In this document: positions 158 through 5,121 of the stretch, piece by piece
How the letters are laid out: each line of letters begins with the position of its first letter
How positions within the stretch are numbered: the stretch's first letter is position 1
Source: a virus
Virus record (IMG/VR): IMGVR_UViG_3300017917_002938
Location: 64,001 to 128,000 of that record
Strand: one strand, 5' to 3'
Length of the DNA: 64,000 nucleotides
Notes under the pieces: generated by a model
The model's database searches: none
What the model was told of the DNA's origin: nothing
The model's input: the letters and a program-made list of their open reading frames with translations, nothing else
Program-made: the position numbers and the translations under genes

Positions 158-231
158 TGGCCGGGGTGCTAGGGCTCGAACCTAGAATAGCAGAGTCAAA
201 GTCTGCGGTGTTACCATTACACTACACCCCA
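158..231 (-). tRNA. tRNA-Gln(TTG)
   Basis: Cloverleaf, anticodon arm GCAGA-CTTTGAC-TCTGC, GGTTCGAGCC, encoded CCA. Confidence 0.95.
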
Positions 232-239
232 ATAATGAA

Positions 240-455
240 TTTGTTGTAGTAGTGCCGCCATCGTTATCGGCACCATTCACCTGGATTAACTAGCCCGGGC
301 AGGACTCGGTAAGTCACTTGGGATACTCATCCAGTTAGCAACCATACTGCGGCGATCTTCCGATCGCCCGGGAGTTGAACCCGTCCCCTTCTACTATATC
401 AGTCCTTCGAAGAAACCTTTATAGCGTGACATTCTCTTGCTGACACTACAACAAA
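240..455 (-). ncRNA. putative ~215-nt multi-stem structured RNA in tRNA array
   Basis: 11-bp terminal stem TTTGTTGTAGT/ACTACAACAAA, GGCGATC-GGAA-GATCGCC, GTGCCG/CGGCAC, T-loop-like GGTTCAACTCC; no ORF in track. Confidence 0.65.
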
Positions 456-458
456 ACT

Positions 459-535
<77 letters not shown>

Positions 536-541
536 ATAACT

Positions 542-615
542 TGGTGCCCCTTGACAGAATCGAACTGCCGTACCCGGGTTACAAAGCCGGTGTAATACCA
601 CTATACTAAAAGGGC
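542..615 (-). tRNA. tRNA-Thr(TGT)
   Basis: Anticodon loop TTTGTAA, CCA end. Confidence 0.93.
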
Positions 616-620
616 AAAAA

Positions 621-695
621 TGGCTCCGGTGGCTGGGATCGAACCAACGACCAATTGATTAACAGTCAACTGCACTACCGCTGTGCTACACCGGA
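621..695 (-). tRNA. tRNA-Asn(GTT)
   Basis: GTTGA-CTGTTAA-TCAAT, CCA end. Confidence 0.95.
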
Positions 696-701
696 ATAAC
701 C

Positions 702-775
702 TGGTTGCGGGAGAGGGAATCGAACCCCCATCTGGAGCTTATGAGACTCCTGAATTACCGTTACTCTATCCCGCG
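702..775 (-). tRNA. tRNA-Met(CAT), initiator-like (C1:A72 mismatch)
   Basis: GGAGT-CTCATAA-GCTCC; 5' CGCGGG...CCCGCAACCA. Confidence 0.9.
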
Positions 776-782
776 TCAAAAT

Positions 783-857
783 TGGCGGTCTCAAGGGGTA
801 ACGATCCCCTTCTTTATGCGTGACAGGCATACGTGCGTCCATGAACACTTTGAGACC
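783..857 (-). tRNA. tRNA-Asp(GTC), variant T-loop ATCGTTA
   Basis: TATGC-CTGTCAC-GCATA, CCA end. Confidence 0.92.
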
Positions 858-865
858 TATATTCT

Positions 866-1043
866 TTGCACGGCTACGTTTTTCAAGTCGCCCCGTACTG
901 AGTTTACAACCCTGTCGCCACCTTTGCTTATTCTGCTGTGTGGATCATCATACCAGATTCTGCTTACGTCTGCGCTAACGGTCTTCTGGACACCGGATCT
1001 TTATCGCGTAATCAAGCGCCTCTGCCACGCTGAGGAGCGGAAA
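866..1043 (-). ncRNA. possible structured RNA between tRNA-Tyr and tRNA-Asp
   Basis: GC-rich spacer with stems CCTC/GAGG, CCAGA/TCTGG, CCAC/GTGG, GGGTT-GTAA-ACTC, GTACGG/CCGTGC. Confidence 0.4.
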
Positions 1044-1044
1044 C

Positions 1045-1133
1045 TGGTGGAAGTGGTAGGATTCGAACCTACAGCGTTTCTTATGTGGCGGATTTACAGT
1101 CCGTTGCCTTCAACCAATTCAGCACACACTTCC
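1045..1133 (-). tRNA. tRNA-Tyr(GTA)
   Basis: CGGA-CTGTAAA-TCCG, long variable arm, CCA. Confidence 0.93.
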
Positions 1134-1138
1134 AATTT

Positions 1139-1222
1139 TGGTGCCCCAGGAGAGACTCGAACTCTCACGCCTTTCGACATTGGCTTCTAAGACCAACGTG
1201 TCTACCATTCCACCACCGGGGC
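1139..1222 (-). tRNA. tRNA-Leu(TAG)
   Basis: TTGGT-CTTAGAA-GCCAA, long variable arm, CCA. Confidence 0.95.
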
Positions 1223-1226
1223 AAAT

Positions 1227-1382
1227 TACCATTTGTTTAGTGTTATCGTGCCTATTTGTCAACAATGTAGCTAGCACTGACAAGCGAATAACAGTTATAT
1301 CAGACAGTGTTGGTCGCACCCTTACTGTCGCGTAGTCATAGCGTCCTATGACGATACCTTTGATAACACTAAACAAATGGTA
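1227..1382 (-). ncRNA. putative ~155-nt structured RNA closed by a 21-bp stem
   Basis: Perfect inverted repeat 1227-1247/1362-1382 enclosing GTCATAG-GACG-CTATGAC, GACAGT/ACTGTC, TTGTCA/TGACAA hairpins. Confidence 0.6.
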
Positions 1383-1453
1383 CACCGTACGGGAATCGAA
1401 CCCGTCTTACCAACGTGAAAGGCTGGTGTCCTAAACCGATAGACGAACGGTGC
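1378..1453 (-). tRNA. tRNA-Glu(TTC)
   Basis: CCAGC-CTTTCAC-GTTGG, CCA. Confidence 0.95.
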
Positions 1454-1480
1454 ATTTAACTTTTTTAAAGAACGAAACGA

Positions 1481-1510
1481 ATTATATTCTGCGATGGAAA
1501 ATAAATCAAC
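1481..1510 (-). promoter_or_regulatory. sigma70-type phage promoter inside tRNA array
   Basis: TTGATT-17-TATAAT, same motif as early promoters. Confidence 0.7.
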
Positions 1511-1584
1511 TGGTCCTTTCGAGAGGTAACGATCCTCTGTCTCTCGGTTATCAGCCGAGTGCTCTACCTTTGAGCTACGAAAGG
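1511..1584 (-). tRNA. tRNA-Ile(GAT), variant T-loop ATCGTTA
   Basis: CTCGG-CTGATAA-CCGAG, CCA. Confidence 0.93.
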
Positions 1585-1585
1585 T

Positions 1586-1660
1586 TGGTGGTAATGAAGA
1601 GACTCGAACTCCTAACCTACACCGTATGAAGGTGCCGCACTACCATTGTGCTACATTACC
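1586..1660 (-). tRNA. tRNA-Met(CAT) elongator or Ile2(CAT)
   Basis: GCACC-TTCATAC-GGTGT, CCA. Confidence 0.9.
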
Positions 1661-2193
1661 AGTCTAGATGGTTTTACAGCCTGCAATGCAAACTTTAGCG
1701 TATCGTCGGTCTGAAAGTCTAAATGTACACATTTAAAATCTGCCTTATAGATATACCTAAAATCTGACATCGATGTCTTACCAATTTGCCTTGTGTATTC
1801 GGATTGATCGAGAAATATAAGAGATTCTTTTTGAATCACTCTCGTATGACTCGGATCTCCCCATACCCAGGGCGAGTTAATATTTGGACAGGTAGCCATC
1901 AAGAAACCTCCTGGTTTCAGAATTCTCCAGAACTCACTAAACTGAGCAAAGAAAAATTTATAGTCTCCCTGTCTTCCGGTATGTTCTAGAACTTCATATG
2001 CATGAATTTCATCAAACGTATTATCCTCAAAAACCGAATATGGTATGTTACAAAGATCCCACACTATATCCGGTTTATGATCGCGGTTAATATCAAGGGT
2101 AGTTAGATTATTCCATTCAGGATTACCATCATGAATGACTTTCTCTCTACGACTACCACATCCAATTAATAGTTCTTTTTTATAGTTTACCAT
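1651..2193 (-). CDS. class I SAM-dependent methyltransferase-like protein
   Basis: IGCG motif I, FDEIHAYEVLEH, RILKPGG. Confidence 0.8.
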   Translation of the reverse strand: MVNYKKELLIGCGSRREKVIHDGNPEWNNLTTLDINRDHKPDIVWDLCNIPYSVFEDNTFDEIHAYEVLEHTGRQGDYKFFFAQFSEFWRILKPGGFLMATCPNINSPWVWGDPSHTRVIQKESLIFLDQSEYTRQIGKTSMSDFRYIYKADFKCVHLDFQTDDTLKFALQAVKPSRLVM

Positions 2194-2290
2194 ATAGAAA
2201 CATACTAAATCTGCGACACCGTCAAATGCCGCATCGCCTAGTTGACGCTAGACCGCCAGAGTGTGGCGTTCAGTATGTTTTTATATGGTA
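2188..2290 (-). ncRNA. putative ~100-nt kissing-loop RNA
   Basis: ~19-bp closing stem; hairpin loops CGTCAA and TTGACG are exact complements. Confidence 0.65.
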
Positions 2291-2360
2291 GGGGCACAGA
2301 GAATCGAACTCTGATTAATAGGTTAAAAGCCTACTACTTTAGCCGTTAAGTTATACCCCC
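2286..2360 (-). tRNA. tRNA-Lys(TTT)
   Basis: GTAGG-CTTTTAA-CCTAT, CCA. Confidence 0.95.
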
Positions 2361-2482
2361 AGCAATTCTTGTTTTTGAGCTCTACGTAGTGCCTTATTAG
2401 ACTTACGATGAACTCCTGCTTTACGAAAAAGCGCTAAACGAACGAAGCAGTTACGTTCGCGCGCGATGGGTTTTCGTTTCAT
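2351..2482 (-). CDS. 43-aa basic peptide MKRKPIARERNCFVRLALFRKAGVHRKSNKALRRAQKQELLGV
   Basis: Manual translation; SD GAGG upstream; below ORF-track cutoff. Confidence 0.65.
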   Translation of the reverse strand: MKRKPIARERNCFVRLALFRKAGVHRKSNKALRRAQKQELLGV

Positions 2483-2580
2483 TTTTTCCTCACTTTAAGT
2501 TTTTGTCGATTACTACTATTAGTATTATTACGATAAGAAGTACTGAGACCGCCCCATGTTGTTTCTCCTTAACAAGTCTA

Positions 2581-2610
2581 ATTATAGATGTAGTTGGAAA
2601 ATAAGGCAAC
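2581..2610 (-). promoter_or_regulatory. sigma70-type promoter inside tRNA array
   Basis: TTGCCT-17-TATAAT with A-tract upstream. Confidence 0.65.
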
Positions 2611-2638
2611 AACTTTTTTTCTAACTATTTCTAGTTAC

Positions 2639-2716
2639 TGGAGTGTCGAGTCAGATTTGAACTGACGGCTTTACGGGTTTGCAATCCGTTCCCTTGGACC
2701 TCTCGGGCATCGACAC
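2639..2716 (-). tRNA. tRNA-Cys(GCA)
   Basis: Loop TTGCAAA, U73, CCA. Confidence 0.92.
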
Positions 2717-2721
2717 ATATC

Positions 2722-2795
2722 TGGTGCTGCTAGGAGGTAACGATCCTCCGTTTCCGCCTTACCAAGGCGGTGTAATACCTTTATACTATAGCAGC
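2722..2795 (-). tRNA. tRNA-Thr(GGT), variant T-loop ATCGTTA
   Basis: CCGCC-TTGGTAA-GGCGG, CCA. Confidence 0.93.
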
Positions 2796-2800
2796 AAAAA

Positions 2801-2888
2801 TGGCGGAGGGTATCAGACTCGAACTGATGCGCCCATTTCTGAACGACGGTTTAGCAAACCGCTGGTTTAACCGCTCACCCAACCCTCC
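2801..2888 (-). tRNA. tRNA-Ser(GCT)
   Basis: GCGGT-TTGCTAA-ACCGT, long variable arm, G73. Confidence 0.95.
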
Positions 2889-3475
2889 TAAGTAGCAAAC
2901 TTCCACTCTGTTTTTTCTTTAAACCCTACCTCACCACCTTGCTCTTTTATTCTTTTGAACACCTCTTCAAGCAGTATTGGTCTAAAGTCAATCTGCTCAA
3001 CACAGACAGAGAAATAGCGAGGATCAATTTTTTTTCCATGTTTAGTAAATCCATCATCCATTTTTACTCTATTCGAATGGAGATGTCCATGAACGTTGCA
3101 GCCAAACCGATACAGTTGGTCAGGGTGCACTGGTACATGAGTAAAAATACAACCGTTCATTACATGGCTGCCTCTGATATCTCTAAAGTATTGAGTGTAT
3201 TCTTCAAGTTTAAAAATATCGTGGTTACCTTTAATCAACACTTTGTCTCCGTTCAACCGACCTAGCGTTTTTAATGCTTTACGGTTGATAACAACGTCGC
3301 CTAGATGATATACTTTGTCATTGGGTCGAACAGTTTCGTTCCACCGCTTGACCATTTCTTCATCCATCTCATCCGGGTTATCCCACGGCCTGAGCTTCTC
3401 TCCGTCTTCACGTGTAAATCGGCATACGCCGGCGTGACCGAAGTGCGTATCGCTAACTACGAATACCGATGGCAT
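2888..3475 (-). CDS. calcineurin-like metallophosphoesterase
   Basis: SDTHFGH, HLGD, KGNHD, HGHLH motifs. Confidence 0.9.
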   Translation of the reverse strand: MPSVFVVSDTHFGHAGVCRFTREDGEKLRPWDNPDEMDEEMVKRWNETVRPNDKVYHLGDVVINRKALKTLGRLNGDKVLIKGNHDIFKLEEYTQYFRDIRGSHVMNGCIFTHVPVHPDQLYRFGCNVHGHLHSNRVKMDDGFTKHGKKIDPRYFSVCVEQIDFRPILLEEVFKRIKEQGGEVGFKEKTEWKFAT

Positions 3476-3495
3476 ATACGCCTCCTTTCATGTTA

Positions 3496-3590
3496 TGGTA
3501 CTCCCGACAGGATTCGAACCTGTATCATCCCCTCATCTAGAGGCATCGCCGAGGTATAAGCTCGGAGTTTTACCGTTAAACTACAGGAGC
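3496..3590 (-). tRNA. tRNA-Ile(TAT) with unusually long variable arm (95 nt)
   Basis: CCGAG-CTTATAC-CTCGG, ~25-nt variable region with CCTC/GAGG stem, GGTTCGAATCC, CCA. Confidence 0.8.
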
Positions 3591-3598
3591 ATCTAAAG

Positions 3599-3672
3599 TG
3601 GTCTGGGTGGCAAGAATCGAACTTGCACCTCAAGTATCCAAGACTCGTCGACTACCACTATCCTACACCCAG
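3599..3672 (-). tRNA. second tRNA-Pro(TGG), atypical A37
   Basis: CGAGT-CTTGGAT-ACTTG, CCA. Confidence 0.85.
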
Positions 3673-3680
3673 ATAAAAAT

Positions 3681-3756
3681 TGGTGGACCGGCGGGGTAAC
3701 GATCCCCGATCTTCGCATTGCAAGTGCGACGTGTAGCCCTCTATCACTACCAGCCC
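3681..3756 (-). tRNA. tRNA-Ala(TGC), variant T-loop ATCGTTA
   Basis: TCGCA-CTTGCAA-TGCGA, G3:U70, CCA. Confidence 0.93.
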
Positions 3757-3760
3757 AAAA

Positions 3761-3802
3761 TGACTTACTACTTGTCCTATTATACGCCATAAGTCAAGGC
3801 GA
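3761..3802 (-). ncRNA. possible H-type pseudoknot in tRNA spacer
   Basis: S1 CGCC/GGCG; loop TGACTTA pairs with 3' TAAGTCA. Confidence 0.45.
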
Positions 3803-3806
3803 GTTT

Positions 3807-3899
3807 TGGCGGAGACGGTGAGACTCGAACTCACACACCCATTTCTGAGCCTTCGGTTTTCAAGACCGCTGCCGCTATGCCGATTCGGCTAACATCTCC
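3807..3899 (-). tRNA. tRNA-Ser(TGA)
   Basis: CGGT-CTTGAAA-ACCG, long variable arm, CCA. Confidence 0.93.
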
Positions 3900-3904
3900 T
3901 TATT

Positions 3905-3978
3905 TGGAGCGGATAGGGGAAATCGAATCCCACTCTGCACAGCTTGGAAGGCTGGCGACACACCTCGTGCTTACCCGC
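3905..3978 (-). tRNA. tRNA-Gly(TCC), atypical D-arm
   Basis: CAGC-CTTCCAA-GCTG, U73, CCA. Confidence 0.85.
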
Positions 3979-3982
3979 ATAA

Positions 3983-4061
3983 ACCATATAAAAGTTCTTT
4001 GCTCAGTATGGACTCTGACTATGCCTTGTCGTTACAAGCATTCAAAGAACTTTTATATGGT
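3983..4061 (-). ncRNA. putative ~80-nt three-way-junction RNA
   Basis: Perfect 19-bp inverted repeat 3983-4001/4043-4061 enclosing two hairpins. Confidence 0.5.
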
Positions 4062-4139
4062 ACCCCTGCTCGGACTCGAACCGAGACTTACTAACACTCC
4101 TTTTGAGAGAGCTGCCTTTACCAATTTGGCCACAGGGGC
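4058..4139 (-). tRNA. tRNA-Leu(CAA)
   Basis: GCTCT-CTCAAAA-GGAGT, CCA. Confidence 0.92.
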
Positions 4140-4142
4140 ACA

Positions 4143-4217
4143 TGGAGCGGGCAGCGAGGATCGAACTCGCAACTAAACCTTGGCAAGGTCTCGTGTTACC
4201 ATTAGCACCATGCCCGC
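4143..4217 (-). tRNA. tRNA-Gly(GCC)
   Basis: AGACC-TTGCCAA-GGTTT, CCA. Confidence 0.95.
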
Positions 4218-4223
4218 ATCATA

Positions 4224-4299
4224 TGGCCGGTCCTGAGAGAATCGAACTCCCACTTCAGCGTTCGTAGCGCTGCGTAATCATCCATTTTACTAAGGACCG
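4224..4299 (-). tRNA. tRNA-Arg(ACG), first gene of array
   Basis: CAGCG-CTACGAA-CGCTG, CCA. Confidence 0.93.
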
Positions 4300-4330: not shown

Positions 4331-4360
4331 ATTGTAGTTGAGGTAAAAAAATAAATCAAC
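4331..4360 (-). promoter_or_regulatory. sigma70-type promoter directly upstream of tRNA array
   Basis: TTGATT-17-TACAAT. Confidence 0.65.
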
Positions 4361-4380: not shown

Positions 4381-4415
4381 AAACAAAAACCCCAGGGTGT
4401 TTAGTCCTGGGGCTT
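4381..4415 (-). terminator. intrinsic terminator (attenuator 3:4 hairpin)
   Basis: AAGCCCCAGG-ACTAAACAC-CCTGGGGTTT followed by TTGTTT; 5' arm alternatively pairs with 4445-4455. Confidence 0.8.
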
Positions 4416-4440
4416 GTGTTAGATCTCTAGATACTATTGG

Positions 4441-4566
4441 CTACACACAAACCCCTGGTGATGGATACTCAATGGCATTACCTCCAAATGAGCGGCCACA
4501 CTGACTCCATGTTACGTCTAGCGTAACGGAGTGTTTCAGCGATGTGGGTATGAGTGTTTGCATCAT
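4441..4566 (-). CDS. putative attenuator leader peptide (41 aa, all 20 amino acids)
   Basis: MMQTLIPTSLKHSVTLDVTWSQCGRSFGGNAIEYPSPGVCV*; last codons overlap antiterminator arm. Confidence 0.75.
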   Translation of the reverse strand: MMQTLIPTSLKHSVTLDVTWSQCGRSFGGNAIEYPSPGVCV

Positions 4567-4569
4567 AGT

Positions 4570-4598
4570 ATTATATAGCATCCTTTGCCCTAGGGCAA
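4570..4598 (-). promoter_or_regulatory. promoter for leader (probably leaderless transcript)
   Basis: A9 tract, TTGCCC-17-TATAAT; 7 nt downstream is the A of ATG at 4563; palindrome TTGCCCTAGGGCAA over the -35. Confidence 0.65.
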
Positions 4599-4611
4599 GC
4601 TTTTTTTTTGT

Positions 4612-5121
4612 TTATTTCAAATCTTTTTTGACTAGGTACACGTAAGTGTAAGCGTTCTGCTTAGAGACTCCTAGTGCTTCCGCAACTAGATCTATAACCA
4701 CCTTATCACCTTTATCTTTGTTCTCAATGTACAGTTGCTGGGCAATCGCACGTTTAGAGCCCTTCTTACCTTTTACTTTAGCTTTTCCGCTTTCCATAGT
4801 AACTGCCACGTCAGGCATCTTGAACGCAGTGGGACCCAAAATTTGAGTAAGATTGTTGATACGAGCATCAGCTTTCTCTAAAACTGCTTTAGGATCAACC
4901 GCCCCATCGTTCATTTGCTTTTCAATAGCAGTCATTGCAAAGATGTAAGCTTTGCGTACGTTAGTTTCAGGTTTTAGACCAAACGCATACATGATCTTAT
5001 TTGCAGCTTTGAGAGGATCAGGCTGAGCATCTAAGTATTCACGAATTGAACGAATAGCGCGAGTCGGAGACATTCCCGGCTCAAGCTTAAGTTTAGTCAT
5101 CAAATCAGTACCATGATTCAT
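4612..5121 (-). CDS. hypothetical protein with C-terminal HTH-like domain
   Basis: ORF with SD; C-terminus resembles ORFs 42065-42541 and 48019-48243. Confidence 0.75.
   Translation of the reverse strand: MNHGTDLMTKLKLEPGMSPTRAIRSIREYLDAQPDPLKAANKIMYAFGLKPETNVRKAYIFAMTAIEKQMNDGAVDPKAVLEKADARINNLTQILGPTAFKMPDVAVTMESGKAKVKGKKGSKRAIAQQLYIENKDKGDKVVIDLVAEALGVSKQNAYTYVYLVKKDLK

Follow-up and report, generated by a model that had tools for sequence, protein, structure and literature searches.

The leader peptides of the classical attenuators--trpL, hisL, pheL, thrL, leuL and the multivalent ilvGMEDA--contain runs of one to three regulatory amino acids, whose biosynthesis they control. T-box riboswitches (RF00230), which have no open reading frame (ORF), bind a single uncharged transfer RNA (tRNA) directly and have synthetase or amino-acid genes as their targets. 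Arrays of tRNA genes are common in phages and, to our knowledge, next to nothing has been established about their regulation; a full-text literature search turned up no description of phage tRNA genes being controlled by attenuation. Described here is a candidate attenuator of such genes, located at positions 4381-4598 of a 64,000-nucleotide (nt) stretch of DNA (termed here the window) that corresponds to positions 64,001 to 128,000 of the 163.5-kb IMG/VR record IMGVR_UViG_3300017917_002938, from an uncultured lake-water phage. The element, all of whose features lie on the minus strand, is likely to be a ribosome-dependent leader-peptide transcription attenuator that monitors the decoding of all amino acids and controls whether transcription reads through into the phage's tRNA genes.

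Like the classical attenuators, this element has a promoter-proximal short ORF, two mutually exclusive RNA pairings (of segments 2:3 or 3:4), a terminator ahead of the putatively regulated genes, and a stop codon so placed that a terminating ribosome would mask segment 2. It differs from them in that every one of the 20 amino acids is represented in its leader by one to a few codons and in that it would control tRNA genes. No enrichment of the leader for the amino acid or acids of a controlled pathway is seen; what is found is an analogue of this relationship, inasmuch as the downstream array serves all 20 amino acids and, among relatives, leaders lacking Glu and Tyr precede blocks lacking the corresponding tRNAs. 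Moreover, in contrast to the classical 1:2 'superattenuated' state, untranslated phage RNA is predicted by folding to favour the antiterminator in most members. As with the T-box, a terminator/antiterminator leader would report on tRNA charging; unlike the T-box, the phage element has an ORF, and Rfam (T-box, riboswitches and known phage RNAs) yielded no match in 4381-4600 at E ≤ 1.

The closest published analogue appears to be the upstream ORF (uORF) attenuator of whiB7/wblC in mycobacteria and other Actinobacteria, in which a stall anywhere within the uORF leads to read-through and which thereby acts as a general translation-stress sensor (PMC10274678). In M. smegmatis the uORF of whiB7 specifies 19 of the 20 amino acids, and knock-down of genes for 18 of the 20 amino acids, their tRNAs or synthetases is inducing; when Trp or His codons are removed the matching starvation response is lost, so that, by experiment, uORF composition sets the starvations that are sensed (PMC10274678). 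At the same time, whiB7 uORFs are alanine-rich and often incomplete, that of M. tuberculosis being without several residues (PMC10274678). The phage element likewise has a leader ORF of broad composition followed by an antiterminator and terminator; however, it is viral and would control tRNA genes, whereas whiB7 is cellular and encodes a transcription factor for antibiotic and alanine stress. Nor is Ala enriched in the phage leaders (108 of 1771 residues, or 6%), in which completeness itself appears to be selected. The two show no sequence relationship, and the phage locus has neither an Ala-rich leader, nor a whiB7-family regulator, nor an actinobacterial genome around it. The leaderless polycysteine short ORFs of mycobacteria, in the outline given by bioRxiv 10.1101/834739, offer a further parallel, namely a sensing ORF with which a leaderless transcript begins and which regulates downstream operon genes. 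As outlined there, those ORFs are cellular and sense Cys alone, whereas the phage leader is viral and spans all amino acids.

A candidate switch at the head of a phage tRNA array

Under the mechanism proposed here, host RNA polymerase would start at the leader promoter and a ribosome would translate the 41-codon leader. A ribosome keeping pace would enter segment 2 (the last four codons), leaving segment 3 free to pair with segment 4 as the terminator, and transcription would end ~80 nt short of the first tRNA. Were the ribosome instead delayed at any of the first ~34 codons by too little matching charged tRNA, segment 2 would pair with segment 3 once the latter is made; the terminator would then be blocked and transcription would continue into the tRNA genes. 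In other words, poor decoding would lead to more phage tRNA, a feedback loop by which slow decoding of any codon probably raises the phage's transcription of its own tRNAs. Because there is a codon for every amino acid, and because the synonymous codons are varied, the switch would report overall decoding capacity rather than the supply of one amino acid. The corresponding features of the window are these:

4570-4598, minus strand: sigma-70-type promoter, with -35 TTGCCC (4598-4593), a 17-nt spacer and -10 TATAAT (4575-4570)
4441-4566, minus strand: leader ORF, 41 codons long and closed by a TAG stop at 4443-4441; 40 codons if started at 4563
4499-4541, minus strand: hairpin P1 inside the ORF (centroid structure), whose 3' strand includes the single Trp codon
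4462-4498, minus strand: hairpin P2 inside the ORF (centroid structure)
4409-4455, minus strand: antiterminator, formed by segment 2 GGGGUUUGUGU (4455-4445, codons 38-41) and segment 3 ACACAAGCCCC (4419-4409)
4381-4412, minus strand: intrinsic terminator, consisting of the hairpin CCCCAGG-ACUAAACAC-CCUGGGG (4412-4390) and a U-tract (4389-4381)
4331-4359, minus strand: another promoter-like site (TTGATT-17-TACAAT, a consensus match only), located past the terminator and ahead of the first tRNA
158-4299, minus strand: tRNA array, with 22 tRNAs in the window according to ARAGORN

The predicted transcript start, the seventh base past the -10 element, is the A of the ATG at 4563, and so the leader mRNA is predicted to be leaderless; a second, in-frame ATG lies at 4566. 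The encoded peptide, MMQTLIPTSLKHSVTLDVTWSQCGRSFGGNAIEYPSPGVCV, includes all 20 amino acids, the last of which has appeared by codon 34, and 34 different codons are used among its 41. Upstream of the promoter a 172-residue gene ends at 4612. Segment 2, which in DNA letters reads GGGGTTTGTGT, forms 11 base pairs (bp) with segment 3, and the stop codon is located within the resulting antiterminator (-18.5 kcal/mol, z = -3.9, 11-bp stem). The terminator (-19.8 kcal/mol, z = -4.0), whose 5' arm overlaps segment 3, has a 7-bp G+C-rich stem that is lengthened by flanking A-U and G-U pairs to 10 contiguous pairs in the window; its hairpin is followed by TTTTTGTTT in DNA, that is, UUUUUGUUU in RNA. 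These two structures are mutually exclusive and of about equal stability, and 28 nt separate the stop codon from the terminator hairpin. The leader transcript as a whole is structured (z = -3.6), and P1, as folded, may be an RNA polymerase pause or synchronising hairpin.

The element was originally proposed by a sequence-only reading of the window, in which the promoter with its start on the ATG at 4563, the 40-41-codon ORF with its full amino-acid set by codon 34 and 34 different codons, the 11-bp pairing of the last codons with the 5' arm of the terminator, and the intrinsic terminator itself were all described as they are found here, the peptide being exactly as quoted. That reading also listed downstream promoters at 4331, 2581 and 1481, and promoter-like sites do occur there (4359-4331 and, within the array, 2609-2581 and 1509-1481). 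Its array of 23 tRNAs ~80 nt downstream agrees in position, as the first tRNA, Arg-ACG, starts at 4299, 82 nt past the U-tract; the number differs, being 22 in the window by ARAGORN.

No second copy of the element occurs in the phage's own genome, and PHROGs contains no family for the leader peptide, for the upstream 172-residue protein or for the downstream small ORF. A perfect hairpin, GCTTGCCCTAGGGCAAAG, at 4584-4599 overlaps the leader promoter at its -35 element; read on the plus strand, where nine T residues come after it, it scores as an intrinsic terminator, and it might be a stop for antisense transcription or the end of the upstream gene's transcript.

Conservation and divergence across the family

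The family is defined here by a shared CCCCAGG-N9-CCUGGGG terminator and is represented by 96 distinct leaders. Besides the window, 54 viral contigs contain the identical 23-mer terminator hairpin, and at least 65 additional contigs have its stem combined with related loops; these loops follow the consensus AYUARAMAC, with ATTAAAAAC in 32 and ATTAAACAC in 12 among the matches listed. Same-strand tRNA genes lie downstream in every one of the first 54 loci for which more than ~600 nt of downstream sequence is available, the first tRNA being 37-1660 nt past the hairpin and the arrays including up to 41 tRNAs; in a second set of loci same-strand tRNAs likewise follow in all family members but one (L146). 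The exact hairpin has no match among 185,579 bacterial and archaeal species (one genome each), and blastn searches of 50,697 GenBank phage records with the window element, a core member and the hairpin region found no true match among cultured phages. Flanking proteins were tried as a route to syntenic loci and set aside: the loci thus obtained (L002-L007, at 44-50% identity, and the exonuclease homologues L008-L010) are without the element.

An nhmmer profile built from 59 core relatives matches the window only at 4455-4381 (E = 3e-11), which indicates that the window is a divergent member, having the common switch module but an ORF that has drifted to ~17% peptide identity and is not alignable. 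Even so, it shares what characterizes the family: an ORF of 30-53 codons that heads a same-strand tRNA array, has a complete or near-complete amino-acid set and is separated from the hairpin by 21-31 nt. A TAnAAT hexamer lies 2-9 nt before the start ATG in ~20 of the 96 members.

The leader frame is open from a conserved ATG in all 96 members (30-53 codons, median 46), while the other two frames contain 3.5 and 4.1 stops on average. For close pairs the ratio of nonsynonymous to synonymous polymorphism (pN/pS) is 0.62-0.66 in the body of the ORF, 1.15 in its tail and 0.77 overall, far from values typical of a protein; and the median pairwise identity of the peptides is 26% for the first 40 leaders, the window's peptide being ~17% identical to the others. 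These patterns indicate that the ORF is kept, but not as a protein, the peptide itself being only weakly constrained.

What does appear to be constrained is the completeness of the amino-acid set. All 20 amino acids are present in 78 of the 96 leaders, 19 are present in another 12, and 17-18 in the remainder. By comparison, windows of 41-45 residues drawn from real ORFs reach 20 in 0.3-1.9% of cases (0.3-0.9% at 41 residues, with 0.3% for ORFs of the window itself), and draws from the family's own flat composition do so in 1.2-2.6%. When the columns of the peptide alignment are shuffled, which retains position-specific conservation, 4.0 ± 1.8 leaders are complete (maximum 11 in 2000 shuffles) versus 33 of 40 observed. 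Rare residues, moreover, shift between members: Cys is present exactly once in 28 of 40 leaders, yet in at least 10 different alignment columns. On average 6.5 of the 20 residues occur exactly once per leader, and there are no runs of one amino acid. As a matched control, 57 small ORFs located just downstream (median 53 residues) mostly contain 15-17 residue types. Hence, on this comparative evidence, the complete set of amino acids is judged to be under selection.

Codon choice shows a similar tendency. The 34 distinct codons of the window's leader are reached by 0.1% of 41-codon windows (real-ORF mean 26.2 ± 2.6); such single-window statistics are suggestive, and it is the comparison with relatives that settles the matter. 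Over the family, synonymous codons are over-dispersed, with 2619 distinct codons versus 2510 ± 20 expected under uniform usage and 2382 ± 20 under phage usage. Because repeated residues thus tend to use different synonymous codons, this points to a leader that samples codons or isoacceptors and not amino acids alone.

In 57 of the 96 members a conserved helical ORF of 50-60 residues (e.g., L021:4383-4556), with the motif ...HTLT.EQ..KLIQDKFERAR..., lies between the terminator and the tRNAs. It has a strong AAAGGA ribosome-binding site (RBS) ~22 nt after the hairpin, where the window has a promoter-like site instead.

Switch geometry and the tRNA genes served

The distance from the stop codon to the hairpin is 21-31 nt in all leaders (median 27). 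Furthermore, in 81 of the 96 leaders the first G of segment 2 is preceded by the full set of amino acids, which is most often complete three codons earlier, as compared with 23.7 ± 4.1 leaders when residue order is shuffled; early completion of this kind suggests that the 20 residues are packed into that part of the ORF in which a stall would leave segment 2 free.

The terminator was all that RNAalifold recovered from a MAFFT alignment of the family as a whole, the upstream part being poorly alignable, and therefore an alignment of the core subfamily together with per-sequence folding was used instead. Within this core alignment (59 members), two ORF hairpins and a three-helix antiterminator are paired in 86.5% of cells versus 30-51% in slid controls, and covariation is 0.18 versus 0.03-0.07, with 14 pairs that change on both sides. 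Between subfamilies the bases adjoining GGGG/CCCC vary in step (UCC/GGA, UUCUGAG/CACAGGA and UUUAAGU/ACUUAAG, with UUUGUGU/ACACAAG in the window), and antiterminator strands from the same member pair better than strands mixed between members (-6.3 versus -4.2 kcal/mol).

The effect of a ribosome was modelled with ViennaRNA by masking a 28-nt footprint. For the window and for nearly all of its relatives, the model favours the antiterminator when there is no ribosome or when a ribosome is early or midway in the ORF, and the terminator (P = 0.99) when a ribosome has 5-8 codons left to the stop. With the ribosome on the stop codon itself, the model allows a helix to close around it, an outcome judged to be sterically unrealistic.

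With these results, the central prediction of the sequence-only reading--that in related phages the tRNA arrays would be preceded by a ~40-codon ORF in which 20/20 amino acids and 2:3/3:4 covariation are retained while the peptide diverges--was put to the test and passed. The position at the head of tRNA arrays holds across the family's loci, completeness is found in 78 of 96 leaders against the 0.3-0.9% of real 41-residue windows, codon diversity extends to the family as a whole, and the antiterminator strand covaries with its partner while stop-to-hairpin spacing stays within 21-31 nt.

Certain family members provide a natural control. Three loci (L082, L096 and L056) have a block including tRNA-Glu, tRNA-Tyr and tRNA-Asp upstream of the switch, and the leaders of these same loci are without Glu and Tyr and have Asp in the tail only, beyond the sensing part. 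The chance that two missing residues both belong to a given set of three is 3/190. For L082 the downstream block serves 17 amino acids, and these are exactly the set found in the sensing part of its leader. Ahead of its upstream block (Ser-Glu-Tyr-Asp-Met) there is a promoter and a 22-residue ORF, MSRKAAEHVGSNDRAGLYKTVV (L082:5001-5069), with a leader-like SNDR motif and a TVV ending; a search there for a second leader found no terminator with the ORF, which could be a decayed second leader.

Otherwise, tRNAs upstream of the switch are rare and mostly consist of a single tRNA-Met, with or without tRNA-Leu. In L075, L084, L107, L117 and L119, for example, a tRNA-Met, often with a tRNA-Leu, is located 165-180 nt before the leader ATG and outside the switch; it may be an initiator tRNA, kept outside attenuator control.

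The window's array runs past the window start, where there are seven more tRNAs (His, Val, Phe, Trp, Arg, Leu and Met) and a transfer-messenger RNA (tmRNA); taken together, the array tRNAs inside and beyond the window cover all 20 amino acids. At 3909-3978 on the minus strand, between tRNA-Ser and tRNA-Leu, there is a weak tRNA-like Rfam match (tRNA-Sec model, 22.5 bits, below threshold), which may be the 23rd tRNA of the sequence-only reading or a decayed tRNA. According to ARAGORN, the tmRNA, with tag ANDERFALAA, is at the far end of the tRNA region (L065:4754-5123, i.e., genome 56754-57123), ~7 kb ahead of where the window starts; in L056, too, a tmRNA (AANDEVFALAA) is found close to the array. 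Two protein genes on the minus strand, of 180 and 195 residues, lie within the window's array at 1651-2193 and 2888-3475, respectively; the latter has, by eye only, the DxH...GD...GNHD motifs typical of metallophosphoesterases.

Alternative readings and biological meaning

Comparative sequence analysis thus establishes that the ORF is maintained, that completeness is selected, that the two structures are mutually exclusive and covarying, and that element and tRNA arrays are linked. As for direction, a switch in which stalling leads to read-through is what the geometry and the folding model would imply; the mechanism would also depend upon the coupling of transcription and translation, and its natural trigger may be starvation or host anticodon nucleases.

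Several observations weigh against a leader-peptide attenuator of this kind or limit its scope. Codons read by the phage's own tRNAs are not enriched in the leaders (826 observed versus 818 expected), and exact Watson-Crick matches to phage tRNAs are slightly below expectation (412 versus 485). With no such enrichment for the phage's own anticodons, a description of the leader as 'codon-matched' was rejected, and the matching of leader to array is seen only at the level of amino acids and of codon diversity. The sequences, moreover, are related, so that the shuffle statistics overstate their independence; clustering at 50% identity gives 21 clusters, of which 13 are mostly complete. In 15 of the 96 leaders the last new residue falls in the tail, a region in which stalling would not be expected to cause read-through. 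The terminator loop AYUARAMAC (window 4396-4404) is conserved in more than 100 contigs, although a plain terminator needs no such loop, and a W...NDRTPE motif that the simple model does not require is common to core members and could have a role of its own. Finally, because promoter-like sites occur past the terminator, the nearest of which (4359-4331) would supply basal, terminator-independent expression, read-through would add to basal expression rather than being the sole means of control.

The W...NDRTPE motif is the starting point for one alternative, in which the leader is an arrest peptide or ligand-sensing leader of the TnaC or erm type: a single Trp, followed 7-10 residues on by NDRTPE, would stall the ribosome on a specific signal, and completeness would be secondary. 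Trp does occupy one alignment column in 39 of 40 leaders, NDRTPE-like motifs recur within the core subfamily, and the terminator/antiterminator geometry would suit such a leader equally well. Yet the window's leader lacks the motif, as do several other subfamilies whose leaders are still 20/20, and in core members the Trp codon pairs with the Pro codon of TPE in helix P2, so that RNA structure can account for the conservation, and may explain at least part of it. Arrest would, in addition, leave unexplained the completeness, the turnover of rare residues, the over-dispersion of synonymous codons and the leaders without Glu and Tyr, and is thus considered quite unlikely. The conserved loop, for its part, could be viewed as the seed or protein-binding site of a trans-acting small RNA, namely the terminated ~185-nt leader RNA, acting with or without attenuation in the manner of rnTrpL in Sinorhizobium, a precedent for an attenuator-derived RNA of this sort. 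In keeping with this, loop and stem are far more conserved than the rest and the transcript is significantly structured (z = -3.6); however, Rfam offers no match, strict placement at the head of tRNA arrays points to a role in cis, and a function residing in the RNA alone would leave the open frame and its completeness unexplained. A small RNA of this type is accordingly unlikely.

Two further alternatives separate what the attenuator combines. If the locus were simply a gene for a small protein, equipped with a promoter and a terminator of its own, then its ~41-residue product would act in trans and the pairing with the terminator arm would be incidental; this might fit with a frame that is conserved and open in all members and with RBS-like GGA/GAG sequences before the ATG in some core members. 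A folded or binding peptide, though, has no need of 20 residues or of varied codons for repeated ones, and the observed divergence (pN/pS ~0.8 overall and 1.15 in the tail, median identity 26%, no PHROG family), the covarying pairing and the fixed stop-to-hairpin spacing of 21-31 nt all argue otherwise, making this very improbable. That the ORF is instead a by-product of a non-coding structured leader (a riboswitch or processing signal) is scarcely credible: covarying helices and alternative terminator/antiterminator folds are what such an RNA would show, but its frame would hardly be open in 96 of 96 members while other frames have 3.5-4.1 stops, nor would an ATG be conserved at the transcript start; amino-acid and codon statistics like those seen here are inexplicable for non-coding RNA, and Rfam, T-box included, again gives no match.

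An extension of the attenuator reading, possible though on balance doubtful, is that the element serves as a counter-defence sensor, which, because its leader takes in every amino acid and many isoacceptor codons, would detect the loss of any host tRNA to anticodon nucleases or to other tRNA-depleting immunity and would switch on replacement tRNAs within seconds, with the conserved loop as a second input through a protein or trans-RNA function.

If the leader-peptide attenuator described here is correct, then the tRNA supply of these phages would be self-adjusting, with expression of the phage tRNAs coupled to starvation of the host or to defences that target tRNA. Leader-peptide attenuation would likewise be broadened, reaching tRNA genes in addition to amino-acid genes and all amino acids in place of a single one. 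The family would then constitute a compact, portable sensor of global decoding capacity, ~190 nt in length, with ~100 natural variants available for comparison.

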